64,000 nucleotides of DNA from Ignavibacteriota bacterium. GTDB taxonomy: Bacteria > Bacteroidota > Ignavibacteria > UBA10030 > UBA6906. Positions within the stretch are counted from its first letter, which is position 1. Each line of letters opens with the position of its first letter. The translations under genes and the position numbers were made by a program. The notes beneath the pieces were generated by a model. It was not told the DNA's origin. It searched no databases and saw only the letters and a list, made by a program, of their open reading frames with translations. Where the stretch lies: contig CAWDEM010000008.1 of the NCBI GenBank assembly GCA_963801355.1, positions 163,458-227,457 of the forward strand, in the 5' to 3' direction. Of the stretch, positions 23,799 to 50,919 are shown in pieces.

Positions 23799-23827
23799 TT
23801 GACAAATCGATATTCCTGCCCTATATT
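23799..23827 (+). promoter_or_regulatory. Sigma70-type promoter of the glycan locus
   Basis: TTGACA (23799-23804), a 17-nt spacer, and TATATT (23822-23827). Confidence 0.65.
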
Positions 23828-23831
23828 TCCA

Positions 23832-23845
23832 TGTAAACGTTTACA
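23832..23845 (+). promoter_or_regulatory. LacI-family operator O1 (TGTAAACGTTTACA)
   Basis: Perfect 14-bp palindrome matching the LacI/GalR-family consensus TGnAAnCGnTTnCA. It sits at the predicted transcription start. Confidence 0.7.
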
Positions 23846-23864
23846 ATTCTTCGTATCAGGATGA

Positions 23865-23878
23865 TGTAAACGTTTACA
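23865..23878 (+). promoter_or_regulatory. LacI-family operator O2 (TGTAAACGTTTACA)
   Basis: Second identical 14-bp palindrome, 33 bp centre-to-centre from O1. Confidence 0.7.
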
Positions 23879-23988
23879 GATGTTTTTCGCTCGTTGTCAA
23901 CGATACCTTCCTGCAGCGAGCTTCTTCAATTTCAGAGCTGGTTAATAGTCCACCTAACACCATCACCACACAATCAACAGAGGTCTTT

Positions 23989-26900
23989 ATGGGCACAATG
24001 CGCCGATTGACAATTCCCCTGGTACTGATCCTCGCAGTCTGCTCTCTTGCCAACGCCCAGGTGTTGTGGCGTTCTGTCGCAAGCGGCAACTGGGGGGCCA
24101 TCACAACCTGGGAGTATTCCACCGATTGGGGGGGGACGTGGGGAGTTCCTCCTGCGGCTCCAGCCACGCGTGATACAGCCAGTGGGTTTATCATCAATAC
24201 CGGTCACACGGTGGTCGTGGAAGCAAGTCCGAAGTACTGCGGCGATCTGTTGGTCAAAGCAGGTGGAGTTCTCACGACGAACGTCAAGCAGCCCACAAGT
24301 GACATCCGTTACATCCGCATCAAGGGGACTCAGTTGACGGTGGACGGAGTCTTTGGATTTGCAGTCGATCCGTCCGACAGTGCGGATGTGCTCAGCCTGC
24401 AGGTATACGGTCCGAACCAGACGCTGGTTATCAAGGGTTCGGGCACGATAAACATCTGTCGCATCCGTCCACATACAGGAGCCGGGAGAACGAATATCGG
24501 AGTGGAATTCGAGACCAACGCGACGATCACCTATATCGGATCGACCGGCACAGGTGGCGCGGGTATCTACTCTGCTAATGATGCAAACAATGACAATATC
24601 ACATTCGCTGTGAATCCGGGGCGGACGGTCACGATGGTTGACGGTTGCAACCTCGCGACCAGTTCGAGCACATCGACTGACGGCACTGCCAGCACAACAT
24701 TCAACATTGGCGGTACAGTGAACATGCTCGGCGGAAACTTGAACCTCCGCGGTGCTGCCGGGAAGAACATAGTGCTGAACGTTACCGGCACGCTGAATGT
24801 CGGCGGGAGCGTCTATCCCACCGGCACGACAGGCGTGACGAGCACGATGAATGTTTCGGGTACAATGAATACCGGTACCCTCGGAAAAGGGACGCTGTAC
24901 TTTGACGCCCCGGCGCAGCTTGTAACCGGAGCAGGCACCTTCACGGTAGGCCAAGGTGCGACGTTCCGGACGGGTTTGCCTCAGGGTCTTCCTGCCTCGG
25001 GCGGCCAGATCCGGACCAACACCGTGACATTCAGTCCGGGTGCCAACTATGCCTACGTCGGGACCGCTGCGCAAACAACGGGCGCACTTCTTCCCGTACA
25101 TGTCAGAGGGCTCGCGGTTGCCAACGCGGCCGGCGTAACGCTCTCGAAGAGCACCCTTGTGGATTCCACACTCACGTTGACGAGTGGCGCTCTCCTCACC
25201 GGAGCTGACACACTGGCTGTCGGACCCGGAGGAGAAGTCGAGCGGACAAGCGGGTATGTTGATGGCAATCTCGCAAAGCCCACTCCCGGCGGCGCCACGA
25301 CTTTTGAAGTCGGAGCGGCCGGCGGGTATTCGCCGGTCGTTGTCAACGTGACATCCGGTTCCGGATATGCCGCGGTGAAAGCGGTCAATGGCAGCCATCC
25401 GAACCTCATCAACAGCGCGCTAGCATTGAAGCGCTACTGGAAGCTAGCGAATATGGGGATCACGTCGGCTGATCTGACTTTTGCCTATCCCGCGGCGGAT
25501 GTGCAGGGAACCGAGACTGCATATGTCGGTGCGCGGAATACGACAGGCAAGGAGTGGAGCAAATATACCACGACAGTCGACGCCGTGGCGCACACCGCAA
25601 CGGTGACCGGCGCCACAGTCGCATCAGACTGGACGCTCGGGGAACCGCGTGCGTTCTCGCCGTTTGACGATCCGGCTGCCTTGATCGTCCCCAATGCGCT
25701 CAGGCCAATGACACTTGACGGGAAGCTCGACGAGTCGGAGTGGGCTTCGGCGCCGACGTTGCTCTTTGGCAACGGCGCCTACCTGAAGAAGGGGATGGGA
25801 GAGCAGACGGTGACCGGAGGTTTCGACATCAAGGCCACCTACGACTACTGGGATCAGGGTGTGTTCTACGGCACCTTCCATCGGCCGAACACTGACAGTT
25901 CTCTTGCAAAGGTGAAGTTCCTGCGCAAGGGTGTGAACCTGTACATCGGCATACAGTCGGACGACAAGAGTATCTGCAAGTTCGACTGGGAAGGCGACGG
26001 ACTGTTCGTCAAAATCAAGCGGTCGAACGGAAACGATCTGGAATACAAGCTGTACTACCAGAACATCGGCACCGCGGCCGACACGATCCGGTACGAAGGC
26101 CCCGGAGGGTTGACCAACTTTGGCGACGGAGCGGGGTATCTCATGACCGGCTCCACAGCCAACGACACGACGAATGTGGACAATGGATACTCAGCCGAGT
26201 TGATGATCAAGTTGGATTCGCTCGGCTACACCGCCACGCTTGACACGGTGAAGCTGTCGATGGCGGTGTTCGATCCTGACGGGTACCAGCACCCGATGAA
26301 CTCCTACGACACGACGGCGGGATCATACTACAAGTCGTGGTGGGGGAGTGAATGGGGTGGAGTCTACCGCTCGCTCCTCTTCTCACCGGAGCCGGTGAAG
26401 TTCGATGACCCGCCGGGTATTGCGGTGCAGAATGCTTTGCGCGCAATGACGGTGGACGGCAAACTTGATGAGTCGGAGTGGGCCACCGCTCCCACACTCG
26501 CCTTTGGCAACGGTGCCTTCGTGAAGAAGGCTGCCGGCCAGAAGACGGTGACCGGGGAATTCGACATCAAAGCCACGTACGACTACTACGACCAGGGCAA
26601 GTTCTACGGCACGTTCCATCTGCCGAACACGGATAGTTCTCTTGCGACGGTGAAGTTCCTGCGCAAGGGTGTGAACCTGTACATCGGCATACAGTCGAAC
26701 GACAAGAGTATCTGCAAGTTCGACTGGGAAGGCGACGGACTGTTCGTGAAAATCAAACGGTCGAACGGGACCGATCTGGAATATAAGCTGTATTACCAGA
26801 ACATCGGGACCGCGGCCGACACGATCCGGTACGAACCACCCGCAGCGAACTACGGTGAAGGGGCAGGCTATCTCTTCGCCGGTTCGAAGGTTAATGACAC

Positions 26901-28176
26901 GACGGGCGTGGACAAAGGCTACTCAGCCGAGTTGATGATCAGGCTCGACTCGCTCGGGTACAAGGCCACGCTCGACACGGTGAAGCTGTCGATGGCGGTG
27001 TTTGATCCTGACGGGTACCAGCACCCGATGAACTCCTACGACACGACGGCGGGATCGTACTTCAAGTCGTGGTGGGGGAGTGAATGGGGCGGAGTCTACC
27101 GGTCGCTGACGTTCTCGACGGAGCCTGTGAAGTTTGACGACCCCGATACCGTATTCGCGCCTACCGCCACCGGGACAATTACGGTTGACGGTGTGTTGGA
27201 CGAGGCAGACTGGGCAAGAAGGTCTACACATCTGCTCTTCGGCAACGGTGCCTTCCTGAAGAAGGCATCCGGCCAGAATACGGTGACCGGAGAATTCGAC
27301 ATTAAAGCCACGTACGACTACTGGGATCAGGGTGTGTTCTACGGCACATTCCATCGGCCGAACACGGATAGTTCACTTGCAACGGTGAAGTTCCTGCGCA
27401 AGGGAGCAAACCTGTATATCGGCATCCAATCGGACGACAAGAGTATCTGCAAGTTCGACTGGGAAGGCGACGGGATGTTCCTGAAGATCAGGCGCGCGAA
27501 CGGGACCGATGTAGAGTTCAAGCTGTACTACCAGAACACCGGTACAGCGGCCGACACAATCCGGTACGAGCCACCCGCGGCCAATTACGGTCTGGGAGCG
27601 GGCAAGCTCGCTTCGGGTTCGAAAGCAAACGACACGACGGGTGTGGACAACGGGTACACGGCAGAATTGATGGTTAAGCTGGATTCTCTAGGCTATCTGC
27701 CGACGGCGCGTAACGTCCAGCTGTCGATGGCGGTGTTTGACCCCGACGGGTACCAGCACCCGATGAACTCCTACGACACGACGGCAGGATCGTACTACAA
27801 GTCGTGGTGGGGAAGCGAGTGGGGTGGGGTGTGGCGCGTCGTTTCCTTCGACAACCTCCTGGGAGTTGAGGGCGAACCGGGTGTCATTCCGCAGGTGTAC
27901 GCTCTGCACCAGAACTTCCCGAATCCATTTAATCCCAGCACGCGAATTCGCTTTGACGTGCCGGCGGCGAGCACGGTCCGCATTGCCGTCTTCGACGTCA
28001 CCGGCCGTGAAGTGGCATCGTTGGTGCAGGGGGATTATGCTCCCGGCACGTACACAACGACATTTGACGCCAGCAGGCTCGCGAGCGGCGTGTACTTCTA
28101 CAGGATGATGGCATTCGGTGTGGAAGGTGGCGGTGCTGCCTTCGTCACTACGAACAAGTTGGTGCTTTTGAAATAG
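23989..28176 (+). CDS. Giant T9SS-secreted surface protein: beta-helix-like N-terminus, 3 tandem CBM9/DOMON-like modules and a C-terminal sorting domain
   Basis: Signal peptide MGTMRRLTIPLVLILAVCSLANA. Gly/Thr-rich N-terminal ~550 aa. Three ~245-aa repeats each start FDDP...(L/V)DG(K/V)LDE(S/A)(E/D)W. Sorting domain LHQNFPNPFNPSTRI...GVYFYRM. Confidence 0.8.
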   Translation: MGTMRRLTIPLVLILAVCSLANAQVLWRSVASGNWGAITTWEYSTDWGGTWGVPPAAPATRDTASGFIINTGHTVVVEASPKYCGDLLVKAGGVLTTNVKQPTSDIRYIRIKGTQLTVDGVFGFAVDPSDSADVLSLQVYGPNQTLVIKGSGTINICRIRPHTGAGRTNIGVEFETNATITYIGSTGTGGAGIYSANDANNDNITFAVNPGRTVTMVDGCNLATSSSTSTDGTASTTFNIGGTVNMLGGNLNLRGAAGKNIVLNVTGTLNVGGSVYPTGTTGVTSTMNVSGTMNTGTLGKGTLYFDAPAQLVTGAGTFTVGQGATFRTGLPQGLPASGGQIRTNTVTFSPGANYAYVGTAAQTTGALLPVHVRGLAVANAAGVTLSKSTLVDSTLTLTSGALLTGADTLAVGPGGEVERTSGYVDGNLAKPTPGGATTFEVGAAGGYSPVVVNVTSGSGYAAVKAVNGSHPNLINSALALKRYWKLANMGITSADLTFAYPAADVQGTETAYVGARNTTGKEWSKYTTTVDAVAHTATVTGATVASDWTLGEPRAFSPFDDPAALIVPNALRPMTLDGKLDESEWASAPTLLFGNGAYLKKGMGEQTVTGGFDIKATYDYWDQGVFYGTFHRPNTDSSLAKVKFLRKGVNLYIGIQSDDKSICKFDWEGDGLFVKIKRSNGNDLEYKLYYQNIGTAADTIRYEGPGGLTNFGDGAGYLMTGSTANDTTNVDNGYSAELMIKLDSLGYTATLDTVKLSMAVFDPDGYQHPMNSYDTTAGSYYKSWWGSEWGGVYRSLLFSPEPVKFDDPPGIAVQNALRAMTVDGKLDESEWATAPTLAFGNGAFVKKAAGQKTVTGEFDIKATYDYYDQGKFYGTFHLPNTDSSLATVKFLRKGVNLYIGIQSNDKSICKFDWEGDGLFVKIKRSNGTDLEYKLYYQNIGTAADTIRYEPPAANYGEGAGYLFAGSKVNDTTGVDKGYSAELMIRLDSLGYKATLDTVKLSMAVFDPDGYQHPMNSYDTTAGSYFKSWWGSEWGGVYRSLTFSTEPVKFDDPDTVFAPTATGTITVDGVLDEADWARRSTHLLFGNGAFLKKASGQNTVTGEFDIKATYDYWDQGVFYGTFHRPNTDSSLATVKFLRKGANLYIGIQSDDKSICKFDWEGDGMFLKIRRANGTDVEFKLYYQNTGTAADTIRYEPPAANYGLGAGKLASGSKANDTTGVDNGYTAELMVKLDSLGYLPTARNVQLSMAVFDPDGYQHPMNSYDTTAGSYYKSWWGSEWGGVWRVVSFDNLLGVEGEPGVIPQVYALHQNFPNPFNPSTRIRFDVPAASTVRIAVFDVTGREVASLVQGDYAPGTYTTTFDASRLASGVYFYRMMAFGVEGGGAAFVTTNKLVLLK
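25663..27865 (+). repeat. Three in-frame tandem repeats of about 735 bp (coding)
   Basis: Units start at 25663, 26401 and 27133. Long identical peptide runs include KSICKFDWEGDG, LSMAVFDPDGYQHPMNSYDTTAGSY and KSWWGSEWGGV, with near-identical DNA. Confidence 0.9.
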
Positions 28177-28198
28177 TTGAATTGATGCAGACGAAGAG

Positions 28199-28233
28199 GT
28201 GGGGCTTTCTTTCATGACGGAAGAAAGCCCCAC
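28199..28233 (+). terminator. Stem-loop terminator/attenuator without a U-tract
   Basis: Perfect 13-bp stem GTGGGGCTTTCTT/AAGAAAGCCCCAC with a 9-nt loop, 23 nt after the stop codon at 28176. Confidence 0.55.
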
Positions 28234-28280
28234 TCTGCTGCCCGGAGGAGTTTCCAGACTTCGTAGAGGCACACCCGGCC

Positions 28281-29312
28281 GTGACCACAATCAAAGAAGT
28301 AGCCAGGAAGGCAGGCGTTTCGATTGCCACAGTTTCCCGCGTGTTGAACAACGTGGGAGCGGTGGATGAACGGACACGGGCGCTTGTGTCAAAGACCGTG
28401 GTGGAACTTCGGTACGTCCCCAATCCACTGGGGCGCGGTCTGAGCAGGCAAAAAACGGAAGCCATCGGTTTGCTGCTCCCCGATCTGTTCGGCGAGTTCT
28501 TCTCGGAAGTGATTCGCGGGGCTGACCAGACGGCGCAGCTCCACCGGTATCATCTGATGGTCTCCAGTTCTCATAACAGCCGCGCGGAGATCGAAGCTGC
28601 AATCCGGATGATGCGCGGACGTGTTGACGGTCTCCTGATCATGTCTCCGCATATCGACGAGCGGACTCTGAGGGAGAACCTCCCCCAGCACCTTCCTGTC
28701 GTACTCATCAATGCGCGGGTTTGTGGAGACGACTACGACTCGTACAACGTCGACAATCTTGCCGGGTCGGCGGCAATGGTGGAGCACCTTGTTACTCACG
28801 GTCACCACCGCATTGCGCTGATCAAGGGGATCGAAGACAACATCGACGCACTTGAGCGTCACCAGGGGTACCGGAAAGCGCTCGCCGCGGGCGGGATTGA
28901 GCAAGTACCCGAATACGAGATTGCCGGTGACTTCACGGAGGCGTCGGGATACAACGCCGTCCGTCAGATTCTTCAGCTTGATCCGCGGCCAACGGCGATA
29001 TTCGCGTGCAACGACACTGCGGCGATCGGTGCCATGAGCGCGCTCCGGGGAGCAGGCCTCCGCGTCCCCGACGACATTGCCGTGGCAGGCTTTGATGATA
29101 TTCCCATCAGTTCATATCTGAGACCTTCACTCACCACGGTACACGTGGGCATCGATAGAGTGGGAGTGCTTGCGGTGGAAACGCTTCTCCGCGCACTCGC
29201 AGAACGGAATGCCCACCGGAAGGAACACCGGATGATCCCCACGACACTGGCCCTCCGTGGATCCTGCGGATGTCCCGAAGTGAGCCTGCCGGTGTCCGCT
29301 GTTGCATCATAA
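28281..29312 (+). CDS. LacI-family transcriptional regulator
   Basis: N-terminal HTH TIKEVARKAGVSIATVSRVLNN followed by a periplasmic-binding-protein-like sugar-binding core. GTG start. Confidence 0.9.
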   Translation: MTTIKEVARKAGVSIATVSRVLNNVGAVDERTRALVSKTVVELRYVPNPLGRGLSRQKTEAIGLLLPDLFGEFFSEVIRGADQTAQLHRYHLMVSSSHNSRAEIEAAIRMMRGRVDGLLIMSPHIDERTLRENLPQHLPVVLINARVCGDDYDSYNVDNLAGSAAMVEHLVTHGHHRIALIKGIEDNIDALERHQGYRKALAAGGIEQVPEYEIAGDFTEASGYNAVRQILQLDPRPTAIFACNDTAAIGAMSALRGAGLRVPDDIAVAGFDDIPISSYLRPSLTTVHVGIDRVGVLAVETLLRALAERNAHRKEHRMIPTTLALRGSCGCPEVSLPVSAVAS

Positions 29313-29398
29313 GCGCGGGGAGCCATCCCCGGTCCCATGTACAAATGAGCAAATGCATACAGGAGTGTTCAGTCAACATACCATTGAGGGAGGTACGT

Positions 29399-31267
29399 AT
29401 GTATCAACGGCGACTCCTTGTGAGCGTGGCGCTGGTGCTGTGCGGAGTCACGCTTGCGTTGGGGCAGTATTCCCCGCGTAAGGATTATGTCTGGGCGCGG
29501 GATATTTCCGTGGCGGCGAGCCCTGCCATCACGCTTGACGGGCTGCTGACGGAAGCAGTCTGGGCGAAGGCGGAATCGATTCAGATTGCCTATGGTGTCA
29601 AAGACGGCAATCCCAACAGTGGATGGCTCACCAGAACACTCGGCGGAATACCGGCCGATAGTCCCCGCGCCACCATCAAGTTTCTTTCCGATAAGACCAC
29701 CAATCGCGTTTACATCGCCGTGATTGCCCAAGACAGTTCGGTTGGCGGTGCCGGATGGGAGAACGCTGACGGCCTTCTGGCGGGGATCTGTGATCGTAAG
29801 CAGAAGGCCTCGAGTCAGGTGACACTGCACCGTGATATCTTCATATCCTGGGTCGATTCCTCGGCCGAGGGGGCACTCCCGAATCTCACCGGCGGATCTC
29901 TGCCGAAAGCGGGGATCGTGACTGCCGCGGCTTCGGTAAATGGTGTCTCCAACAGCGACACGAATGCAACGGGTCAGCGTGTCGCTGACCTGGGCTATAC
30001 GATCGAGCTGGCCGTGGCACTCGACAGCATTGGATACAGGGCGAATAGCGATACGGTGGATGAGGTTCAGATCAACATAGATATCTGGGATGCCGACTGG
30101 CGCGGTGCCGCGGATGCTATCTTCTCGTGTGCTTGGTGGGGTCATGAGTGGGGAAATGACGGCGGGGGCATGGCGGGACGAATACTTGTGCGGCAGGATG
30201 TCAACGTCAATACCGCCACTCTTCCCGTGTACGGCCCGGACCTAGTCATCAAGAACGGGAGCAACTATCCGGCGATCGCCGTGGACGGTAGTCTGAACGA
30301 CGAGGTCTGGAGCGCGGTGGCTTCGTTCGATATCCAGTATGGAAACGCCGCTCTGCGTGCGACGTATCCGACTATCGGGAAGGACCGGAGCGGCGAGTGG
30401 AACCCCCAAATGAGTCAGCCCGTCGTAAATGCCGGTGTGACCAAAGTGAAGCTGACGTTCCAGGGAGACAAGCTGTTTCTCGGTGCCGATGTGAGCGACC
30501 GCTCTCTAAATAGCTTCGCGAGCGCCACTGCGTTTGATGGTGTCCAACTCACAATGACGCTCCCCATCGACTCACTCCGCGACAAACTTGCCCACGCCCT
30601 GCCGGATCGGCGCTTCGGGATTGCCCTCAATGCGGGGTCTCCAATGCTGCTCTGGGACGGGGTTGACTGGACTTCGACCATTGCGTACGGGATCGCGCTG
30701 AAGACCGGCTCGACGATCGACAACAACAACGACGTGGACTTGGGGTACACGGTTGAAGCTTCCTTTGACCTGTCAAAGATGGGGTACACGGCGGGCCAGC
30801 AGAACAAAACAGTGGCAATCGGCGTGACCGCGTACGATTATGACATCACTCCCACAAGTAGCCCGGGGGTGTGGGCATGGTGGTTCCGAGAAGCGCCGGG
30901 AAAAGCCAGTCCCGCATTCTGTGTCCTTGACAATAGCGCCTTGCTTGTGAGTGTGGCTGATGACCCGGTTGCAGGGTTCCCCCTGGAATTCACACTGCGG
31001 GGGGCCTATCCGAATCCCTTCAATCCCACAACGACATTCTGTTTCGACCTGCCGGAAGCCGGGCGGGCAACCCTGGTCCTGTACGACGTCCTCGGACGCA
31101 TGGTGCGGCACATCGATCTCGGACGGTTGGAGAGCGGTTCGTACGAACGACCGGTGGATGCTTCGTCGCTTGCGAGCGGTGCATATGTGAGCCGGATCGA
31201 GTTTGTTGCGGAGCGGACCGGTGCGCGGAGGTTGTCGGAGAGCATTCGTCTGATGCTTGTCAAATAG
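29399..31267 (+). CDS. T9SS-secreted protein with two CBM9/DOMON-like modules
   Basis: GGGAGG RBS before ATG 29399. Signal peptide LLVSVALVLCGVTLALGQ. ITLDGLLTEAVWAKAESIQI and IAVDGSLNDEVWSAVASFDI match the CBM9-like IDGxLDExxW signature. Sorting domain LRGAYPNPFNPTTTF. Confidence 0.7.
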   Translation: MYQRRLLVSVALVLCGVTLALGQYSPRKDYVWARDISVAASPAITLDGLLTEAVWAKAESIQIAYGVKDGNPNSGWLTRTLGGIPADSPRATIKFLSDKTTNRVYIAVIAQDSSVGGAGWENADGLLAGICDRKQKASSQVTLHRDIFISWVDSSAEGALPNLTGGSLPKAGIVTAAASVNGVSNSDTNATGQRVADLGYTIELAVALDSIGYRANSDTVDEVQINIDIWDADWRGAADAIFSCAWWGHEWGNDGGGMAGRILVRQDVNVNTATLPVYGPDLVIKNGSNYPAIAVDGSLNDEVWSAVASFDIQYGNAALRATYPTIGKDRSGEWNPQMSQPVVNAGVTKVKLTFQGDKLFLGADVSDRSLNSFASATAFDGVQLTMTLPIDSLRDKLAHALPDRRFGIALNAGSPMLLWDGVDWTSTIAYGIALKTGSTIDNNNDVDLGYTVEASFDLSKMGYTAGQQNKTVAIGVTAYDYDITPTSSPGVWAWWFREAPGKASPAFCVLDNSALLVSVADDPVAGFPLEFTLRGAYPNPFNPTTTFCFDLPEAGRATLVLYDVLGRMVRHIDLGRLESGSYERPVDASSLASGAYVSRIEFVAERTGARRLSESIRLMLVK

Positions 31268-31348
31268 GCTGTGCCTTTCCTGCATCGTCTCATGGAGGAG
31301 GCAGCGCTGCAACCGCCTCCTCTTCCTTTCCATGGTGGTGAGGAACGT

Positions 31349-37317: not shown

Positions 37318-38325
37318 ATGACACGAACCATACTGATAGCCGCGGCAGCGTTGCTGACCTGGTCGGTGCTTCACGGGCAGTCCAAGACCGGCACTTCGGT
37401 GGGACAATTCACACTCATTGAGCCGAGCGCCCGCTCTTCTGCAATGGGAGGTGTGGGGGTGACCTCCTCTGCGGAGGCCATGTCTGCATACTACAACCCT
37501 GCTGCACTCGGCTCACTGCTCCAGTCAGACCTGCAGTTTACGCACAACGTCTGGTTTGGCGACATCGTGCTAAACCATGCTGCGGCGGCGCTTCACCTCG
37601 GGGAGCGGAGCACCGTGGCCGTTGCCGTCACGCACCTCTCGTCAGGTGATATTGATGTGCGGACCGTGGAACAACCGATGGGGACCGGCGAACGCTATTC
37701 CGTCACAGACCTTCTGATCGGTGCCGGCTTCGGCATGATGATCACCGACCGGTTCAGCTGCGGGATCCAGGTGAACTATGCCACCGAACGAATATGGCAC
37801 AGCAGCATCGGACTCTTCTCTGTCAACCTGGGGACACTCTACCGGCTCTCGGAAGATGGCTTGCGCATCGGTGCCAGTCTGGTGAATTTCGGGACCAAGG
37901 GCGCATTCGATGGGACCGACCTGCGCGTACGGTACGATCTGGATGCGTCGAGATACGGTGACAACGCGAGCCTGCCCGCTTCCCTCGTGACCGATCAGTT
38001 CGCCCTGCCGATTGTCTTCCGTGTCGGTCTGGGTTATCCCTGGCGCGTTGACAACGGCAACATTCTGGACGTGGCGGTGGAGGCAATAAACCCCAGCGAC
38101 AACAGTCCCGCGATTAATGTAGGCGCGGAATGGTTTTACCGCGAGGTGTTTGCTCTGCGCGCCGGATATGCAGCCCTTTTCCAGACCGACAGCGACTTTG
38201 GTCTGACGCTCGGTGCGGGAGTTGTCTGGGACGGTCTGGGCAATGATCTCCGGGTTGACTACAGCTGGGCCGACCACGCCCGCCTCGGCGGAGTCCAGCG
38301 GGTGACGCTGGGGATCGCTTTCTGA
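37318..38325 (+). CDS. PorV/PorQ-family outer-membrane beta-barrel (paralog 3)
   Basis: Signal peptide followed by GTSVGQFTLIEPSARSSAMGGVGVTSSAEAMSAYYNPAAL. Ends ..VTLGIAF. Lies 4 nt after the preceding gene. Confidence 0.65.
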   Translation: MTRTILIAAAALLTWSVLHGQSKTGTSVGQFTLIEPSARSSAMGGVGVTSSAEAMSAYYNPAALGSLLQSDLQFTHNVWFGDIVLNHAAAALHLGERSTVAVAVTHLSSGDIDVRTVEQPMGTGERYSVTDLLIGAGFGMMITDRFSCGIQVNYATERIWHSSIGLFSVNLGTLYRLSEDGLRIGASLVNFGTKGAFDGTDLRVRYDLDASRYGDNASLPASLVTDQFALPIVFRVGLGYPWRVDNGNILDVAVEAINPSDNSPAINVGAEWFYREVFALRAGYAALFQTDSDFGLTLGAGVVWDGLGNDLRVDYSWADHARLGGVQRVTLGIAF

Positions 38326-43419: not shown

Positions 43420-44814
43420 ATGGTACGCACGCGCTCGCTCGCCATATGTGGATTTCTCCTGCTTGCCTTCCTCTCCCTTCATTGCGGGGGGAGCGGCACC
43501 TCGACCGTTTCGAATTACGCCTCATGGGATCCGTTCCTCGACACCCTGCAATCACGTACGCTGCAGTTCTTCCTGGCGACCGCTGATTCCACAACCGGTC
43601 TGAGTCCTGACCGATGGCCTTCCGCTTCACCCTCGAGCATCGCGGCGGTGGGATATGCCCTGACCGGATACCCCATTGCGGCGGAGAGGGGATTGATCAC
43701 GCGCGCGGAGGCGGCCCGGCGTGTCCTGAATGTGCTGGAGTTCCTCTGGAAGCTCCCTCAAAGCGACCGGCCGGTCTCGACAGCCGGCTACCGCGGACTC
43801 TTCTATCATTTCATAGCGATGCAAACCGGGCTCCGTGTCTGGAATTGTGAACTCTCCACGATCGACACAGGCCTGCTCATGGCAGGCGCTCTCTTCTGCC
43901 AGAGCTACTTCGATGCCGCGGAGCCGCAGGAGGCCGAGATCCGGGCGATGGCCGACAGTCTCTACCGGCGGGTCGACTGGCTCTGGGCGAGTGATGGGTC
44001 CCAGGGCATTCGTCTTGGCTGGTATCCCGAACGAGGGTTCGTGAAGAAGACCTGGACCGGTTACGATGAGGCGATGATCCTGTATATTCTTGCTCTCGGT
44101 TCACCGACCCATGCAATCCCGGCGGAGTCATGGAATTACTACACCTCGACATATCTCTGGGCGGAGTACCAGGGGTCCGAGTTCGTCAGCTTTGGACCCC
44201 TCTTTGGACACCAGTACTCCCACTGCTGGATTGATTTCCGGGGGATTCAGGATGTGTATATGCGGTCCCGTGGCATTGACTACTTCGAGAACTCCCGGCG
44301 GGCAACCGCTTCGCAACGATCCTATGCAATTGCGAATCCGGCCGGATTTGCCGGCTATTCGGACAGCATCTGGGGGCTGACGGCGTGCGATGGTCCCCGC
44401 GACGTTGTTCTTCACGTCGAGGGGCGGGAGCGGAAGTTCCAAACATATGCCGCCCGGGGAGTCTCGGTGGACTGGGTTAATGATGATGGGACAATTGCTC
44501 CCACTGCGGCGGGGGGATCCGTGGCATTTGCGCCGGAGCTCTGCGTTCCTGCCCTCAAGGCATTGCGGAACCGCCACGGGGACCGTCTCTTCCGGGAGTT
44601 CGGCTTCGCCGATGCGTTCAACATGACCTTCATTACCCCGGAAACCCCGGCGGGGTGGTATGATGCGGATTATATCGGGATCGATCAGGGGCCGATTGCG
44701 GTCATGATCGAAAACCTCCGGAATGGTTTCGTGTGGGAGACCATGAAGAAGAATCCATATGTTGTGAGCGGATTGAAGCGAGCAGGGTTCACCGGGGCAT
44801 GGCTCCAGCATTGA
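43420..44814 (+). CDS. GH144-like (PF10091) lipoprotein, paralog of the catalytic core of 40775-43300
   Basis: Lipobox FLSLHCGG. Same core motif set: SSIAAVGYAL, YRGLFYHFIA, LSTIDTGLL, GHQYSHCWIDFRGI, GFADAFN and YIGIDQGPIAVMIENLR. No sorting domain. Confidence 0.65.
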   Translation: MVRTRSLAICGFLLLAFLSLHCGGSGTSTVSNYASWDPFLDTLQSRTLQFFLATADSTTGLSPDRWPSASPSSIAAVGYALTGYPIAAERGLITRAEAARRVLNVLEFLWKLPQSDRPVSTAGYRGLFYHFIAMQTGLRVWNCELSTIDTGLLMAGALFCQSYFDAAEPQEAEIRAMADSLYRRVDWLWASDGSQGIRLGWYPERGFVKKTWTGYDEAMILYILALGSPTHAIPAESWNYYTSTYLWAEYQGSEFVSFGPLFGHQYSHCWIDFRGIQDVYMRSRGIDYFENSRRATASQRSYAIANPAGFAGYSDSIWGLTACDGPRDVVLHVEGRERKFQTYAARGVSVDWVNDDGTIAPTAAGGSVAFAPELCVPALKALRNRHGDRLFREFGFADAFNMTFITPETPAGWYDADYIGIDQGPIAVMIENLRNGFVWETMKKNPYVVSGLKRAGFTGAWLQH

Positions 44815-44824
44815 GGGCTCTGGC

Positions 44825-47800
44825 ATGATGTTCACAATTCCCCTCCTCCTTGCCTTCCTTTTTTCTACAGTTCCTCAGACTGTTCCTGTGTCAGTCCTTC
44901 TGGATGATTTCTCGACGCTTGCCGGTTGGAAGACCATCGTTTCCGACGGGGCGGCGCTCAGGCTGGAAGCCGCCAGGGGAGCGTCCGGAATGTGTATGAT
45001 GATGGAATTCGACCTGACCGGAGGGGCCGGCTACGTGATTGCGGAAAAGCCGTTCAACATCGATCTTCCCGCAGACTATCAATTCACGTTTGACCTCCGT
45101 GGAGAGACTCCGATCAACAACTTCGAGTTTAAGGTCATTGACGAATACGAAAACGTTCACTGGATAAAGAAGCTGAATGTCACCTATCCGACAGAGTGGA
45201 CGAAGCAACGGATCAAGAAGCGGCATCTCAGCTTTGCCTGGGGTCCGGCAGCGGGGAAAGAACTCCGGCATGTGCGTGCGCTGCAGTTCGTCGTGTCAGC
45301 GGGAACGGGAGGGAGGGGGAGAGTCTGGGTGGACAATTTCCGGTTCGAGCGCCTGGATGACAGCGCTGCGGCCGGGGCAGTCGCCGTTGTGATCAATGGC
45401 GAAGCACGGATTGACGCTGCCGGAACTGTCCTGACATTCTGGGCCTCCGGTGCCGCTCCCGATTCCCTGGTCATCGACTTCCATCACACGAAGGAGGTAG
45501 GCGGAGCCGTGATCGACTGGGACAGTGCGGATTATGCGAGCTCCTATGACATACTCACGTCGGATGATGGAAATGACTGGAATCATGTATATGGTGTTCA
45601 GCGTGGGAAGCCGGGGCGCGCGTACATCCCCTGTGGCGAGGCGGAGGGGAGATTCTTGAAATTGCGCACTCGTGGCGACAGTCGCGGCCGGGGTGCGGTC
45701 ATGCTGAGAATGTACATCAAAGATCCCTCCTTCTCTTCCTCATCCAACAACCTGTACCGGACAATTGCTGGAGAGGCGCCTCCAGGTTATTTTCCGAAGT
45801 ACTTCCTGGACCAGCAATCGTACTGGACGGTGGTCGGAGTGAGCGGGGACGCCAAAGAGGCGTTGATCAACGAGCAGGGTCAGATCGAGGTGGACCGTGT
45901 GCGGTTTTCCCTTGAGCCCTTCCTCTTCGTCGATGGGAGGCTGGTAACCTGGAATGACGTCAACACAACCCCTTCGCTGCGCAAAGGCTATCTGCCCATT
46001 CCTTCCGTCACGTGGAACTACAGAGGCGCGGTGACATTGACGATCGAAGCAGTCGCAGCCGGAGCACGCGGACAGTCGTTCCTCGGCATCCGGTATTCTC
46101 TGACAACCAGGGTGGAAAACCTCCACGGGAAGCTGTTTGTAGCGATCCGGCCATTCCAGGTCAACCCGCCCTGGCAATTCCTGAACATTCAAGGTGGGAC
46201 AGCGCGCGTCGACACTATCTCGTACCGGGACGGAATGGTCTTCGTGGACAGCACCATGATAATCCCGATGAAGGCGCCGACCGGATTCGGCGCACTGGAG
46301 TTCGACGAGGGTGATATTACTGAATATCTTGCACGGGGCGAATTGCCGCGCGCGCAACACGTGTACGATCACTCCGGCCATGCCTCGGCAGGGCTCTCGT
46401 ATGATTTTCGTCTCGACCGGAGTGAGACAAAGGAAGTACACTTCGTCATCCCCTTCCATGGCCGGGACCCTTCTGCGATTCCGGAGTTTGACGAGTTGAT
46501 GCAGGCGAGCGTGAAGGCATGGGAGGGCAGTCTTGATAGGGTGGAGTTCTCCCTGCCTCCTTCCGCGCAAGATGTCGCGCGGACACTCAAATCGAATCTC
46601 GCATACATTTTCATCAATCGTGATGGTCCCGGAATTCAGCCCGGCTCGCGGAGCTACGAGCGTTCGTGGATTCGCGACGGATCGTTGACCTGTGCCGCTC
46701 TTCTGCGGCTCGGGCACCAGGAGGAGGTGCGGGAGTTCATCGACTGGTATGCACGGGGACAATTCCCGAATGGCAAGGTCCCGTGCGTGATTGATGCCCG
46801 GGGTTCCGACCCGGTGCCCGAACATGACAGCCACGGAGAATTCATCTATGCAATACGGCAGTACTTCCTCTTCTCAAAGGACACGGCCTGGCTGCGGGGG
46901 AAGTTTGACGGGGTGACCAGAGCAGTCCGCTACATCCAGTCTCTCCGCGCTGAGCGGAAGACGGAGGTGTACCGCACCGGAACGCCGGAGCAACGTGCCT
47001 GTTTCGGTCTGGTGCCGGAGTCCATCAGTCACGAGGGATATTCTGACGTTCCGCGTCACTCCTACTGGGATTGTTTTTTTGTTCTGCGCGGGCTGAAAGA
47101 CGCCACAGCAATCGCGGAGGCACTCGGCGAAAACGCTTTAAGCCGGGAGTTCGCTGAAGAACGGGACGATTTCCAGCGGGATCTCTATGCATCGATGCGT
47201 CTGGCGATGCACACAACCGGCGTCGACTATATCCCCGGCTGTGTGGAGCTCGGTGATTTTGACGCGACATCCACGACGGTCGGACTCGCGCCGGGCGGAG
47301 AACTCGGAGCGATACCGGAACCGCAGTTGCACAACACGTTCGACCGGTACTACGGGTTCTTCCAGAAACGGAAGGCCGATGCCATGTTCGTCAATTACAC
47401 GCCGTACGAGGCCCGCATCATCGGATCCTTCGTCCTGCTGGGGGAGAAGGAGCGTGCGGCGGATCTCATGCAGTTCCTTCTCAACGATCGCCGGCCCACT
47501 GCATGGAATCACTGGGCCGAGGTTGTGTGGCGGCATCCGGCAACCCCGAAATATATCGGCGACATGCCCCACACATGGGTGGGATCTGATTTCATCCGGT
47601 CGGTGCTCACGATGTTCCTGTACGATCGCGAACGGGATTCGGCTCATGTCCTGTGCGCCGGAATTCCGGACCGGTGGATCCTCGACCCTGCCGGTGTCAG
47701 AGTCGAGCGGCTTCCCACATATCACGGGACGATCAGCTACACATTGCGGAGAAGCGGGAAGAGTGTTCTCGCTGCTGTATCAGGCAGCTTTGACGCTGCG

Positions 47801-47941
47801 CATCATAGATTGCTCATTGCTTCCCCCCTGGCGAGCAGGCTTCGCGGCGTGGAGGTTAATGGCCGGCCGGTGCCGGTCCTTGAGAGTCGTGAAATTATCT
47901 TGAAGGCATTACCCGCACAGGTGGAGTTCATGTACCGATGA
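44825..47941 (+). CDS. Secreted multidomain protein: N-terminal jelly-roll, discoidin (F5/8 type C)-like domain and C-terminal (alpha/alpha)6-barrel glycoside-hydrolase-like domain
   Basis: Signal peptide MMFTIPLLLAFLFS. Discoidin-like segment VIDWDSADYASSYDILTSDDGNDWNHV..RFLKLR. The C-terminal ERSWIRDGSLTCAALLRLGH..EFIDWYA resembles GH15/GH63-type barrels. The stop codon overlaps the SBP start (ATGA). Confidence 0.5.
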   Translation: MMFTIPLLLAFLFSTVPQTVPVSVLLDDFSTLAGWKTIVSDGAALRLEAARGASGMCMMMEFDLTGGAGYVIAEKPFNIDLPADYQFTFDLRGETPINNFEFKVIDEYENVHWIKKLNVTYPTEWTKQRIKKRHLSFAWGPAAGKELRHVRALQFVVSAGTGGRGRVWVDNFRFERLDDSAAAGAVAVVINGEARIDAAGTVLTFWASGAAPDSLVIDFHHTKEVGGAVIDWDSADYASSYDILTSDDGNDWNHVYGVQRGKPGRAYIPCGEAEGRFLKLRTRGDSRGRGAVMLRMYIKDPSFSSSSNNLYRTIAGEAPPGYFPKYFLDQQSYWTVVGVSGDAKEALINEQGQIEVDRVRFSLEPFLFVDGRLVTWNDVNTTPSLRKGYLPIPSVTWNYRGAVTLTIEAVAAGARGQSFLGIRYSLTTRVENLHGKLFVAIRPFQVNPPWQFLNIQGGTARVDTISYRDGMVFVDSTMIIPMKAPTGFGALEFDEGDITEYLARGELPRAQHVYDHSGHASAGLSYDFRLDRSETKEVHFVIPFHGRDPSAIPEFDELMQASVKAWEGSLDRVEFSLPPSAQDVARTLKSNLAYIFINRDGPGIQPGSRSYERSWIRDGSLTCAALLRLGHQEEVREFIDWYARGQFPNGKVPCVIDARGSDPVPEHDSHGEFIYAIRQYFLFSKDTAWLRGKFDGVTRAVRYIQSLRAERKTEVYRTGTPEQRACFGLVPESISHEGYSDVPRHSYWDCFFVLRGLKDATAIAEALGENALSREFAEERDDFQRDLYASMRLAMHTTGVDYIPGCVELGDFDATSTTVGLAPGGELGAIPEPQLHNTFDRYYGFFQKRKADAMFVNYTPYEARIIGSFVLLGEKERAADLMQFLLNDRRPTAWNHWAEVVWRHPATPKYIGDMPHTWVGSDFIRSVLTMFLYDRERDSAHVLCAGIPDRWILDPAGVRVERLPTYHGTISYTLRRSGKSVLAAVSGSFDAAHHRLLIASPLASRLRGVEVNGRPVPVLESREIILKALPAQVEFMYR

Positions 47942-49227
47942 ACAGGCTTCTGTGGCGAGCATATCCGGTCTGCCTGCTGTTGTCCCTTGCCGCCCTCATC
48001 AGTGGGTGCGACGGCCGTTCTCCGGAAAAAACCGTCATCCGTTTCTGGGCGCTGGGGGCGGAGGGGGACAACATCCGGCAGCTCATGCCGGAATTCGAGC
48101 GGCGGAATCCCGGAATCTCCGTGAAAGTGCAATCACTCCCCTGGACCGCCGCACACGAGAAACTGCTGACCTCCTATGCGGGGAATTCGATGCCCGATCT
48201 GTTCCAGCTGGGGAACACGTGGATCCCGGAGTTCCAGGTGCTCGGAGCGATCGAGGACCTGGACCCGTGGATCAACACATCGCGCGTTGTCAGCGAGCAA
48301 TCGTTCTTCCCTGGTGTCTGGGCGACCAACCGCGCCGACAGTGCGATCGTTGGAATCCCCTGGTACGTCGACACGAGGGTCCTGTTCTACCGGAAGGATC
48401 TCTGTGCCGCCGCGGGGTACGTCCGGCCTCCGGCCACATGGGACGAGTGGAAGGATCTGTCGCGGAAGCTCAAGCAGGCTGCCGTGCGTGAGGGAAGACA
48501 GGCCTATGCGATTTTGCTCCCGACCAACGAGTGGGCTCCGCCTACGATCCTTGCGCTGCAGCGGGGCGCTTCTTTTCTGAAGGAACAGAACACGCGTGGT
48601 GCGTTCAGTGACTCACTTTTCCGTGACGCCTTTGAGTTCTACTGCAGCTTCTTTGCCGAGCGCCTGGCGCCGATCGGAGTCACCCAGGTCACCAATGTCT
48701 ACCAGGGTTTTGCAGAAGGGTTCTTCGCGATGTACATCACCGGCCCGTGGAACGTCGGCGAGTTTCGCCGGCGCCTTCCGCCGGAGATGCGGGATCGATG
48801 GATGACTGCGCCGTTGCCCGGTCCCGGGCCCGCTGGGACGGGTGTGTCTCTGGCAGGAGGATCGAGTCTGGCCATGGCAAGGTCGGCGTCAGACAAGGAT
48901 GCAGTCTGGAAGCTGATCGAGTATCTATCCGATGCCCCTCAGCAGCGGGAGTTCTACCGGATTACGGGCAATCTCCCTGCACGCAAAGAGGTGTGGGATG
49001 ACACGCTTCTGGCTGTCGACCCCTATCTGCATGCCTTTCGGATCCAGCTTGGCGCGCTTGCCTCTCCCCCCGCAATTCCGCAGTGGGAGCAGATAGCCAT
49101 GAAGGTACAGGATTATGCCGAGATCGGGTCGGTGGGAAAGACGCCCGTGCCCGAAATTCTCGCCCGGCTTGACCGGGATGCAGACGTGATACTCGAAAAA
49201 CGCCGCTGGCTGCTCTTCGGTGAATAG
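47938..49227 (+). CDS. ABC transporter sugar-binding lipoprotein (solute-binding family 1)
   Basis: Lipobox ALISGCDG. VIRFWALGAEGDNIRQLMPEFERRNPGISVKVQSLPWTAAHEKLLT is typical of oligosaccharide SBPs. Confidence 0.85.
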   Translation: MNRLLWRAYPVCLLLSLAALISGCDGRSPEKTVIRFWALGAEGDNIRQLMPEFERRNPGISVKVQSLPWTAAHEKLLTSYAGNSMPDLFQLGNTWIPEFQVLGAIEDLDPWINTSRVVSEQSFFPGVWATNRADSAIVGIPWYVDTRVLFYRKDLCAAAGYVRPPATWDEWKDLSRKLKQAAVREGRQAYAILLPTNEWAPPTILALQRGASFLKEQNTRGAFSDSLFRDAFEFYCSFFAERLAPIGVTQVTNVYQGFAEGFFAMYITGPWNVGEFRRRLPPEMRDRWMTAPLPGPGPAGTGVSLAGGSSLAMARSASDKDAVWKLIEYLSDAPQQREFYRITGNLPARKEVWDDTLLAVDPYLHAFRIQLGALASPPAIPQWEQIAMKVQDYAEIGSVGKTPVPEILARLDRDADVILEKRRWLLFGE

Positions 49228-50101
49228 TCAAAGACCATATGCGCTTGTGCTCTTCCTGGCGCCGGCCCTGACGGCGATAGGACTCTTCTTTTTTATCCCT
49301 GTTCTTGCCGCCCTGGTTCTCAGCTTCACTGATTTCGATATCTATGCGCTCGGCAATTTTTCGGTGGCGCGGTTTGTCGGCCTTCGCAACTATCTGCAGA
49401 TTGCCGGGGATCCGCTCTTCTGGAAGGCCCTGAAAAACACCCTCTACTTCCTGCTGGCAGGCGGTCCGCTTTCCATTGCTGTTTCGCTTGGTGCGGCGCT
49501 CCTCTTGAACGCGAAGATGGTCCGGTGGAAGCCGGTCTTCCGGTTCGTCTATTTTGCCCCGGTCGTGACCACTCTTGTCGCGGTTGCCGTGGTCTGGCGC
49601 TTTGTGTACCATCCCCGCTTTGGTCTGTTGAACTATGCGCTCGGGCTTGTGGGGATAAATCCCATCGACTGGCTGGGGGACCCGAACTGGGCCATGCCGG
49701 CGATGATCATCCTGGCCGTCTGGAAGAATTTTGGCTACAACATGATCATCTTTATCGCCGGACTTCAGAATATCCCGGAATCTCTGTACGAAGCTGCGAG
49801 CATCGATGGCGCCGGGTCCTGGCAGCGTTTCCGCACGATTACGTTGCCACTCCTGGCTCCGACGACGTTGTTCATCACGATCATCACGATGATCGGGTAT
49901 TTCCAGTTCTTTGCCGAGCCATATGTCATGACCCAGGGGGGGCCGCTGAACAGCACCCTCAGCATTGTCATGCTCATGTACCAGCAGGGCTTCCGGTGGT
50001 GGAGTATGGGGTATGCCGCCGCGATCGCGTTCGTTCTGTTCCTGTTCATTCTCCTTGTCTCCGTGGCGCAAACGAGATTACAGCGAGGGAGGGCCGGCTG
50101 A
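49220..50101 (+). CDS. Carbohydrate ABC transporter permease (MalF/UgpA-like)
   Basis: Six TM segments. EAA loop ESLYEAASIDGAGSWQRFRTITLPLL. Confidence 0.85.
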   Translation: MNSQRPYALVLFLAPALTAIGLFFFIPVLAALVLSFTDFDIYALGNFSVARFVGLRNYLQIAGDPLFWKALKNTLYFLLAGGPLSIAVSLGAALLLNAKMVRWKPVFRFVYFAPVVTTLVAVAVVWRFVYHPRFGLLNYALGLVGINPIDWLGDPNWAMPAMIILAVWKNFGYNMIIFIAGLQNIPESLYEAASIDGAGSWQRFRTITLPLLAPTTLFITIITMIGYFQFFAEPYVMTQGGPLNSTLSIVMLMYQQGFRWWSMGYAAAIAFVLFLFILLVSVAQTRLQRGRAG

Positions 50102-50919
50102 TGCGCATCGTGAAATCCTTGGGGCTGCATGGAGTACTGCTCATGCTGGCTGTCGTCACGATGGCGCCGCTGTTCTGGATGGTTTCCGCGTCGTTCATGG
50201 CCGGTGGCGAGGCAAGCTCGTTCCCTCCGCCGTTCCTTCCGGCGCACCCGACGATGCAGCAGTACGTCGAGCTTTTCACGCGGCTAAATATCACACACTA
50301 TGTCATCAACAGCGCCTTGCTTGCACTCACCGTGACAGGGATCTCGTTGCTGGTCAACTCCATGGCGGGATATGCGTTTGCGAAATACCGTTTCGCGGGC
50401 CGGGAGAAACTGTTCAAGCTATTGATTGCTTCCATGGTGATCCCGGCCCAGGTGACAATGCTTCCGCTGTTTCTTATGCTCAACAAGATGGGGCTTGTCA
50501 ACACGTATCTCGGTGTCATTATCCCGGGCCTGGCGAGCATTTTCGGGATCTTCCTCATCCGCCAGTTCGCGCTTTCAATTCCGGACAGTCTGATCGAGGC
50601 CGCGAGAATGGACGGAGCCGGGGATTTCCGCATTTACTGGTCGGTCATTCTTCCCCTCTGCAAGCCCATACTCATCACGCTCGCAATTTTCACCTTCATG
50701 GGAACCTGGAACGATTTTCTCTGGCCGCTCATCATCATGACAGATGACTCGATGTACACGCTCCCTGTGGCGCTCGCGAGTCTGTCGGGCGAGCACGTGC
50801 AGGATACCGAGCTCATGATGGCCGGATCGGTGATGACCGTCCTCCCGGTGATGCTGGTGTTCCTTGCCCTCCAGAAGTACTACATCAGCGGGATCATGGC
50901 TGGAGGAGTGAAAGAGTAG
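50101..50919 (+). CDS. Carbohydrate ABC transporter permease (MalG/UgpE-like)
   Basis: ATG 50101 overlaps the preceding stop codon. EAA loop DSLIEAARMDGAGDFRIYWSVILPL. The 464-aa track ORF from 49525 is an out-of-frame overlap artefact upstream of this start. Confidence 0.85.
   Translation: MRIVKSLGLHGVLLMLAVVTMAPLFWMVSASFMAGGEASSFPPPFLPAHPTMQQYVELFTRLNITHYVINSALLALTVTGISLLVNSMAGYAFAKYRFAGREKLFKLLIASMVIPAQVTMLPLFLMLNKMGLVNTYLGVIIPGLASIFGIFLIRQFALSIPDSLIEAARMDGAGDFRIYWSVILPLCKPILITLAIFTFMGTWNDFLWPLIIMTDDSMYTLPVALASLSGEHVQDTELMMAGSVMTVLPVMLVFLALQKYYISGIMAGGVKE

Follow-up and report, generated by a model that had tools for sequence, protein, structure and literature searches.

A conserved SusD-less locus of an Ignavibacteriota bacterium predicted to capture, import and degrade beta-1,2-glucan

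Which glycan does a 27-kb, one-strand gene locus serve when it combines type IX secretion system (T9SS) cargo, a TonB-dependent receptor and a sugar ATP-binding cassette (ABC) importer, how would its substrate cross the outer membrane with no SusD protein, and do its genes form one system? These questions are raised by 13 genes (g01 to g13) in a 64,000-nucleotide stretch of DNA, here called the window, from an Ignavibacteriota bacterium (GenBank assembly GCA_963801355.1, contig CAWDEM010000008.1, positions 163,458 to 227,457). In the open reading frame (ORF) listing of the window, all 13 lie on the + strand between 23989 and 50919. We consider it likely, from the gene content, that they make up a LacI-controlled, operon-like locus for the capture, import and degradation of beta-1,2-glucan. 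The original prediction for this DNA spoke of 14 genes, a miscount, since its own enumeration also totals 13. Its family calls were all reproduced with Pfam and NCBIfam (CBM9 only at the borderline), and its description of the locus as SusD-less was borne out, with no match to the SusD family among the 13 products in either database. The genes are as follows, with starts adjusted using the N-terminal sequences.

23989–28176, + strand: g01, 1395-aa secreted protein with repeated ~250-aa CBM9-like modules and a T9SS type-A C-terminal domain
28281–29312, + strand: g02, LacI-family repressor (PF00356 and Peripla_BP_3)
29399–31267, + strand: g03, 622 aa, two CBM9-like modules and a T9SS type-A C-terminal domain
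31349–34024, + strand: g04, TonB-dependent receptor with an N-terminal CarboxypepD_reg domain and Plug
34035–37313, + strand: g05, 1092-aa orphan protein with a signal peptide, acidic DxDxDG-type loops resembling calcium-binding loops and a divergent T9SS-type C-terminal domain
37318–38325, + strand: g06, PorV/PorQ-family (FadL-like) outer-membrane barrel
38367–40772, + strand: g07, glycoside hydrolase family 94 (GH94) protein, 801 aa, without a signal peptide
40775–43300, + strand: g08, 841-aa GH144 protein with a ~300-aa N-terminal extension and a T9SS C-terminal domain
43420–44814, + strand: g09, 464-aa GH144 protein with a signal peptide
44825–47941, + strand: g10, orphan protein of 1038 aa and candidate enzyme, with a hydrophobic leader at the N-terminus and an F5/8-type-C domain
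47938–49227, + strand: g11, lipoprotein solute-binding protein of a CUT1-type sugar ABC importer (SBP_bac_1; lipobox ISGC)
49220–50101, + strand: g12, ABC permease 1 (BPD_transp_1)
50101–50919, + strand: g13, ABC permease 2 (BPD_transp_1), its ATG overlapping the g12 stop

The evidence for the substrate comes chiefly from g08, g09 and g11. Both g08 and g09 match PF10091, with 257 and 270 bits against a cut-off of 27, in agreement with the GH144 assignment already proposed for them. The best PDB match of both is the Xanthomonas campestris enzyme XcSGL (XCC2207, PDB 8xul), with 355 bits for g08 and 495 bits for g09, and g09 shares ~58% identity with it over residues 38–462, the whole catalytic domain. 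The rest of the PDB matches comprise CpSGL (founding member of the endo-beta-1,2-glucanases), BDI_3064 (a sophorohydrolase) and entries from structural genomics named "glucoamylases". We know of no characterised GH144 enzyme that acts on a linkage other than beta-1,2. In published work (PMC12102758), XcSGL is treated as a GH144 endo-beta-1,2-glucanase (SGL) with a crystal complex with beta-1,2-glucoheptaose (Sop7), and E211 of CpSGL is given as the general acid with E142 as the candidate base. We predict that g08 is a cell-surface endo-beta-1,2-glucanase and g09 a periplasmic beta-1,2-glucanase. The earlier description of g09 as a lipoprotein was not accepted, because its lipobox is atypical and lipoprotein status is therefore unproven. 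For the binding protein g11, the leading PDB matches are Xanthomonas 3uor (378 bits) and then Lin1841, the Listeria binding protein for sophoro-oligosaccharides (Sopn; 228 bits), both with scores well in excess of those of maltose- and cellodextrin-binding proteins. The sequences of g08, g09 and g11 support the prediction of beta-1,2-glucan well, and the target named in the original prediction gains from the XcSGL matches, the Lin1841-related binder and the co-occurrence of GH94, GH144 and ABC genes across phyla.

The GH94 protein g07 calls for a more guarded assignment. It matches PF06165 (287 bits) and PF17167 (395 bits), and its GAGDWNDGLS aligns with GGDWNDGMN of the synthase for cyclic beta-1,2-glucan (Cgs), keeping the GDWNDG block; following the structures of cellobiose phosphorylase (CBP) and chitobiose phosphorylase (ChBP), we take the catalytic Asp to lie in the DWND block. 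[quoted passage not shown] With this last score, and 801 aa against ~1080–1120 aa, the protein is not the Lin1839/LpSOGP-clade phosphorylase (EC 2.4.1.333) that had been suggested. Nor is it clearly in the cellobiose or chitobiose phosphorylase clade, the placement that the original prediction had set against its own; it most resembles the C-terminal part of Cgs. IALB_1177 of Ignavibacterium album was likewise put in a Cgs-C-terminal-like clade of standalone GH94 proteins (PMC8861115). We infer that g07 belongs to this clade, and its beta-1,2 specificity from context. In an Eisenbacteria version of the locus (L081), the 801-aa GH94 gene is absent and a divergently oriented 1291-aa GH94 gene stands beside a GH1 gene at 8–3883 (minus strand). 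Its product, which has an extra N-terminal supersandwich, is built in two parts like the complete phosphorylase region of Cgs, and the presence of a Cgs-like GH94 next to the cassette fits a beta-1,2 role for the g07 clade.

How widely the gene set is kept together was assessed by scanning one genome per species with the GH94 alignment as query, taking the best 80 loci, and comparing all 13 products with the fetched loci by tblastn. A one-strand order recurs: LacI gene, CBM9/T9SS protein, receptor, g05, g06, GH94, GH144, GH144, a variable slot, binding protein, permease and permease. It is found in metagenome-assembled genomes (MAGs) labelled Ignavibacteriota, Ignavibacteriaceae, Melioribacteraceae, "Bacteroidota", Kryptoniota, KSB1, Neomarinimicrobiota and Delongbacteria, so the neighbourhood conservation proposed for checking in the original prediction is present in Ignavibacteriota and beyond. 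The genes g04, g05 and g06 occur together in 38 of the 80 GH94 loci and GH144 in 52; loci from Eisenbacteria, Calditrichota and Zhuqueibacterota were reached through g05 homologues. The colinear cassette is present in dozens of MAGs from at least eight lineages of the Fibrobacterota–Chlorobiota–Bacteroidota (FCB) group. In Acidobacteriota, Thermoanaerobaculia, Phycisphaerae and Dictyoglomaceae, which lie outside this group, the loci keep GH94, GH144, the ABC genes and often g10, and lack the three outer-membrane genes and the T9SS proteins.

These three genes, the trio g04 to g06, bear on the question of uptake. Against the SusC/RagA model TIGR04056, g04 scores 68.6 bits where the cut-off is 368, in its N-terminal region only; by sequence it is not a SusC/RagA member, and the locus is not a polysaccharide utilisation locus (PUL) of the SusC/SusD type, defined by a SusD/RagB gene beside a SusC/RagA gene. 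No close relative of g04 has been solved, the nearest solved structure matching the N-terminal region only. The barrel g06 matches NF033709 with 168 bits (cut-off 90) and reaches 88 of 220 bits with the PorQ equivalog model and 76 of 250 with the PorV model; since neither equivalog cut-off is reached, we regard it as a member of the family that is neither PorV nor PorQ.

For g05, no Pfam or NCBIfam family was found, and an alignment profile run against PDB and Pfam returned only FlgD_ig and EF-hand-like motifs: FlgD_ig matches at E <= 1 in 12 of 25 orthologues (best E ~1e-3), and EF-hand-like matches in some. Over its last ~70 aa it can be aligned to the type-A sorting domains found in g01, g03 and g08; there is no TIGR04183 match and a weak match to the PorZ C-terminal domain (E 0.004). 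Foldseek, usable for the C-terminal domain only because the rest of the AlphaFold2 model is poor, matched the confident part to PorZ, the RgpB C-terminal domain and the NucA C-terminal domain with probabilities of 0.98–0.99, one match being a substrate C-terminal domain bound in a T9SS complex. The family is very large: at 50% identity it falls into 3372 clusters for E <= 1e-3 and 516 for E <= 1e-30. The closest relative with a name comes from a MAG called 'Bacteroidetes bacterium' (87% identity).

In the 80 scanned loci, g05 never occurs without g06, and it lacks an upstream receptor only at a contig end or at the end of the 10-kb flank. The arrangement also extends to distant g05 paralogues (32–40% identity). 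Of seven that were looked up, six stand in the order receptor with CarboxypepD_reg, paralogue, barrel of ~340–355 aa, with gaps of 4–80 nt (L085, L086, L087/L088, L089, L091, L093), and the seventh sits on a truncated contig. The barrel has a Pfam PorV match in four of the six and none on record in the other two; the paralogues are ~1000–1600 aa long and without a Pfam family. Their neighbours are GH130 with a major facilitator superfamily transporter, a glycerophosphodiesterase (GDPD) with an FAD-dependent oxidoreductase (DAO), FG-GAP/ASPIC and CBM9 proteins, and a GntR-type regulator with a second such receptor. In both L085 and L091, two such receptors lie close together. Rotamase (peptidyl-prolyl isomerase) proteins of ~550–630 aa are encoded within or just after some cassettes (L029, 16296–18197; L091, 12246–13907), and a peptidyl-prolyl isomerase fold is also present in BamM of the Flavobacterium barrel assembly (BAM) complex.

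On the basis of gene order and the C-terminal domain, we propose that g05 is exported by the T9SS, kept on g06, and serves as the substrate-capturing partner of g04, a functional analogue of SusD. The barrel pairs PorQ–PorZ and PorV–PorU hold large surface partners. The same is seen in BamG–BamH of the Flavobacterium BAM complex, a FadL/PorV-like barrel holding a large surface partner (PMC12611786). No description of a receptor, unknown protein and PorV-like barrel in this arrangement was found in the open-access literature, which is weak evidence of absence, and the trio seems undescribed. More tentatively, and with somewhat less than even confidence, we suggest that, in the FCB phyla outside Bacteroidia, receptor, g05 and g06 make up a general module for nutrient capture that does not depend on SusD, with g05 diversified by substrate, and, separately, that g10 founds a new family of glycoside hydrolases with a link to beta-1,2-glucan. 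If so, g05 and its PorV/PorQ-like barrel would fill the role taken in Bacteroidota by SusD and surface glycan-binding lipoproteins.

The AlphaFold2 model of g10 has a mean predicted local distance difference test score (pLDDT) of 82 and a predicted template modelling score of 0.77, and shows five parts: CBM11-like domain, F5/8-type-C domain, beta-supersandwich, (alpha/alpha)6 barrel and C-terminal beta-sandwich. By Foldseek it is related to GH94, to the GH15 dextran dextrinase and glucodextranase, and to GH65, GH116 and GH78, at 9–13% identity and a TM-score of ~0.44; there is no PDB sequence match, and in NCBIfam there is a weak GH15-type match only. The simplest reading is that g10 is a glycosidase of the periplasm from a so far uncharacterised family, the compartment following from a hydrophobic leader and the absence of a T9SS tail. 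A speculative role for a GH15-like enzyme here would be to cut the alpha-1,6 linkage that closes Xanthomonas-type cyclic glucans. The slot that g10 occupies, between the second GH144 gene and the ABC genes, varies among relatives: g10 is present in 21 of the 80 loci, GH2-like genes fill the slot in L062 (15747–18392) and L029 (18149–20842), and a GH3 gene does so in the Calditrichota locus L082 (19089–21353). In I. album, it holds a GH35 transglycosylase (PMC8861115). The differing glycosidases suggest that the slot encodes an exo-acting or finishing enzyme.

The two CBM9-like proteins, g01 and g03, frame the regulator gene. The sorting domain (TIGR04183/PF18962) was recognised in g01 (29.5 bits), g03 (24.1 bits) and also g08 (29.6 bits), against a cut-off of 23. 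The CBM9-like label given earlier to both binders is borderline for g03, which reaches 23.5 bits with PF06452 where 23.4 are needed, with no single stretch passing; g01 has no match, and earns the label by paralogy alone, with 27% identity to g03 over the repeated ~250-aa modules, of which it contains at least three copies. Orthologues give 'faint' CBM9 matches. The protein g01 is probably a surface glycan binder; it also matches the 1130-aa protein of L084, the product of the gene ahead of the receptor in other phyla. The position of g03 directly upstream of the TonB receptor is conserved, and no meaningful match to g03 was found among PDB sequences. A Rep_trans match in g01 (residues 1097–1154, 27277–27450; 34.9 bits, no stretch passing) falls within a CBM9-like repeat, recurs faintly in the L090 orthologue (853–4146), and is almost certainly a false positive of the model on that repeat.

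Control of the locus is suggested by a promoter and operator pair ahead of g01, and its possible subdivision and probable end by three hairpins.

23799–23827, + strand: sigma-70-like promoter, TTGACA-17 nt-TATATT, 11 of 12 consensus positions
23832–23845: LacI-type operator 1, perfect 14-bp palindrome TGTAAACGTTTACA
23865–23878: LacI-type operator 2, identical palindrome 33 bp downstream of operator 1
28199–28233, + strand: G+C-rich hairpin between g01 and g02, GTGGGGCTTTCTT...AAGAAAGCCCCAC, from direct reading of the sequence
31290–31325: strong G+C-rich hairpin in the g03–g04 gap
50936–50961, + strand: terminal G+C-rich hairpin 3' of g13, GAGGCCCTTC-ATTTCG-GAAGGGCCTC

Promoter-like sites are few, with two found in the 15 kb from 23.5 to 38.5 kb against 5.6 expected from shuffles. 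The operator palindrome matches twice in the window against 0.02 expected, and 11 related loci have it too, with at most one mismatch, upstream of a LacI, g03-like or g01-like gene; most of the remaining related loci end before the operator region. The sequence of the TGTAAACGTTTACA pair is that of a classic LacI/GalR-type operator, sited so that bound repressor would block the promoter. The candidate repressor g02 is RbsR/PurR/GalS-like at ~1e-70, under the equivalog cut-offs. From g04 onward, the gaps are 10, 4, 41, 2, 119 and 10 nt, and the final three gene pairs overlap at stop and start by 4, 8 and 1 nt, with TGATG at g12/g13; the tight spacing noted earlier from 31349, with its three overlaps, is thus confirmed, with gaps of 2–119 nt. 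Minus-strand ORFs in the region are shadow ORFs within the 13 genes. The terminal hairpin is probably the end of the transcription unit, put no more firmly because direct reading found no T-run after it. The hairpins at 28199–28233 and 31290–31325 could be attenuators, partial terminators, or RNA-processing or stabilising elements within a long unit. A single long transcript is likely and not firm, because hairpins also follow g01 and g03. Rfam returned no riboswitch or other RNA within the locus.

These parts can be combined into a working pathway. Without inducer, g02 would sit on both TGTAAACGTTTACA operators just downstream of the 23799 promoter. On expression, the T9SS would export four products, the CBM9-like binders g01 and g03, the GH144 enzyme g08 and the 1092-aa g05, which its cognate barrel g06, of the PorV/PorQ-like kind, would retain on the cell surface beside the receptor g04. 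Linear or cyclic beta-1,2-glucan would be cleaved by g08 to sophoro-oligosaccharides, which g04, g05 and g06 would capture and pass to the periplasm. There g09 would shorten them, with the (alpha/alpha)6 enzyme g10 probably acting in the same compartment, and the g11–g13 importer, with an ATPase encoded elsewhere, would bring products of Sop3–5 size to the cytoplasm for phosphorolysis by g07 to glucose-1-phosphate. We infer every step from sequence similarities, which are its direct support, and the compartments from signal peptides and T9SS C-terminal domains.

Several findings weigh against this reading and are taken here together with the explanations that compete with it. The target could be another beta-glucan (cellodextrins, laminarin or mixed-linkage glucan), with g07 of the cellobiose type and the PF10091 proteins having a specificity new to GH144. 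The 801 aa of g07 match the size of cellobiose and chitobiose phosphorylases, its CBP score of 455 bits is not far under the Cgs score of 504, its relation to characterised SOGPs is very distant at 32 bits, its homologues carry the Joint Genome Institute (JGI) annotation 'cellobiose phosphorylase', and some loci of its clade, for example in Planctomycetia and Omnitrophota, have no GH144 within 10 kb. No member of the standalone clade has been assayed (PMC8861115). Such a target nevertheless seems very improbable to us, given that g09 is ~58% identical to a GH144 enzyme crystallised with Sop7, g11 groups with Lin1841 and not with cellodextrin binders, CBP is a more distant relative of g07 than the Cgs phosphorylase domain is, and the 13 products include no GH5, GH9, GH16 or GH17 enzyme. 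Two gaps in the proposed route count against it as well: among the 13 products there is no beta-glucosidase to finish sophorose, unless g10 is one, and the locus has a binding protein and two permeases with no ABC ATPase gene. A shared ATPase encoded elsewhere is common for CUT1 importers.

A different objection is that there is no single system, and that g01, g02 with g03, and g04 to g13 are co-oriented independent units. The strong hairpins after g01 and in the g03–g04 gap could divide the region into several transcripts, the 27 kb have one operator region only, upstream of g01, and the ABC or LacI genes stand elsewhere in the order in many related loci. Set against this are the sharing of one strand by all parts in dozens of genomes, a g01-like gene directly upstream of the LacI gene in L090 too, the operator motif upstream of the LacI gene or g03 in relatives, and the 23799 promoter as the sole + strand promoter-like site from 23.5 to 38.5 kb, and we judge independent units unlikely. 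As for the trio, g05 and g06 may be no uptake partners at all: they could be an accessory pair for T9SS or outer-membrane biogenesis, or g05 a secreted enzyme with its own shuttle barrel, the adjacent receptor reflecting operon packing. Known PorV/PorQ-family members serve secretion and attachment, as in the Porphyromonas gingivalis attachment complex, and g06 belongs to this family and has a weak BamG match (E 1e-4). The conservation of g05, ~60% identity between phyla with many invariant acidic and aromatic residues, would suit an enzyme or machine part. The role of g05 as a surface partner draws on gene order and the C-terminal domain alone, and AlphaFold2 with 25 orthologues (58–87% identical) gave a mean pLDDT of 51, with only ~720–1092 confident and the first 700 aa unmodellable. 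Yet the order of receptor, g05-like protein and PorV-like barrel is kept in six of the seven distant paralogues amid quite different cargo genes, and g05 is without a receptor only where a contig or flank ends; the ~60% identity is explained by orthology within one conserved beta-1,2-glucan cassette. We doubt both alternatives on these grounds, and continue with one locus for beta-1,2-glucan in which g04 to g06 would act in uptake.

The surroundings are unrelated to this locus. Upstream lie two methyltransferase genes, and downstream a minus-strand T9SS-tailed gene and a tRNA-Leu gene. A recently transferred island was considered and rejected because the GC content is flat over the window (0.55–0.61). 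Outside the 13 genes, T9SS-tailed proteins in the window include one of 301 aa at 51033–51938 (minus strand), in which the sorting domain alone is recognisable, and a 1011-aa S8 subtilase with BNR/sortilin repeats at 12831–15866 (+ strand); the host clearly relies heavily on T9SS export. Three large ORFs in the window have no Pfam family at E <= 0.001 and encode 1187 aa (52284–55847, + strand), 705 aa (19421–21538, minus strand) and 462 aa (61791–63179, minus strand).

Beta-1,2-glucans are factors in bacterial symbiosis, virulence and osmoregulation, and their natural degraders are little known. The complete predicted catabolic route described here is a conserved and widespread cassette of uncultured FCB lineages from soils, sediments and waters, and not a peculiarity of Ignavibacterium. 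The locus type is known and experimentally almost untouched, and three of its components are of particular interest: the standalone Cgs-like GH94; g10, a candidate orphan (alpha/alpha)6 enzyme that accompanies GH94 and GH144 even beyond the FCB group, in Acidobacteriota and Phycisphaerae; and the receptor–g05–g06 trio, which may explain how glycans are taken up through TonB receptors in SusD-less FCB bacteria.

Among known systems, the Bacteroidota SusC/SusD PULs, including the SGL loci of B. thetaiotaomicron and Chitinophaga, work on the same plan, with binders and an endo-enzyme at the surface, trimming in the periplasm, a regulator of their own, and a TonB-dependent importer with an N-terminal CarboxypepD_reg-type domain. 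The window locus differs from them in having no SusD, a receptor that falls below the SusC/RagA model, T9SS cargo instead of lipoproteins, ABC uptake at the inner membrane, and a LacI-type regulator rather than a hybrid two-component, SusR or extracytoplasmic function (ECF) regulator. The SOGP cluster of Listeria innocua (the phosphorylase Lin1839, the GH3 enzyme Lin1840, the binder Lin1841 and ABC genes) has the same cytoplasmic end, import of Sopn followed by GH94 phosphorolysis. It is, however, Gram-positive, with no outer-membrane stage and no GH144; its SOGP-type GH94 of ~1080 aa is only remotely related to g07, and it has a GH3 beta-glucosidase, which the window locus lacks. The closest solved relatives of g08/g09 and g11, XcSGL of X. 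campestris and the Xanthomonas binding protein 3uor, come from a proteobacterial setting without T9SS and probably without the trio, whereas the window locus has T9SS cargo. At the outer membrane, the pair g05–g06 resembles PorZ–PorQ, PorU–PorV and BamG–BamH (PMC12611786) in that g06 is of the PorV/PorQ family and the g05 C-terminus is like that of PorZ and other T9SS C-terminal domains; those pairs are single-copy housekeeping components of secretion or outer-membrane biogenesis, whereas g05–g06 are multi-copy, diversified, and placed directly after a TonB receptor in nutrient-use loci.

The nearest known system is the SGL gene cluster of I. album (~IALB_1177–1187). Kobayashi et al. (2022; PMC8861115) described it as containing a Cgs-like GH94, two GH144 enzymes, a TonB-dependent transporter and ABC components that include a homologue of Lin1841, and drew a pathway of extracellular GH144, TonB transporter, periplasmic GH144, ABC transporter and cytoplasmic GH94, in which the TonB step is marked as lacking evidence and the function of several genes as 'difficult to predict'. 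The statement in the original prediction that this architecture had not been described as a system fails for this reason, as a homologous cluster and the same predicted pathway were already in print. The I. album locus was not among the best 80 of our GH94 scan; Ignavibacteriaceae-labelled loci are colinear with the window. The published description is silent on T9SS export, the PorV-like barrel and the 1092-aa protein, and the I. album cluster contains the GH35 transglycosylase IaSGT, where the window locus has g10 in the slot and no GH35 match among its 13 products. With the Cgs-C-terminal-like GH94, two GH144 enzymes, TonB transporter and Lin1841-like ABC binder in common, the window locus is, as judged from its genes, an orthologue-level relative of the I. 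album SGL gene cluster with a different accessory enzyme.

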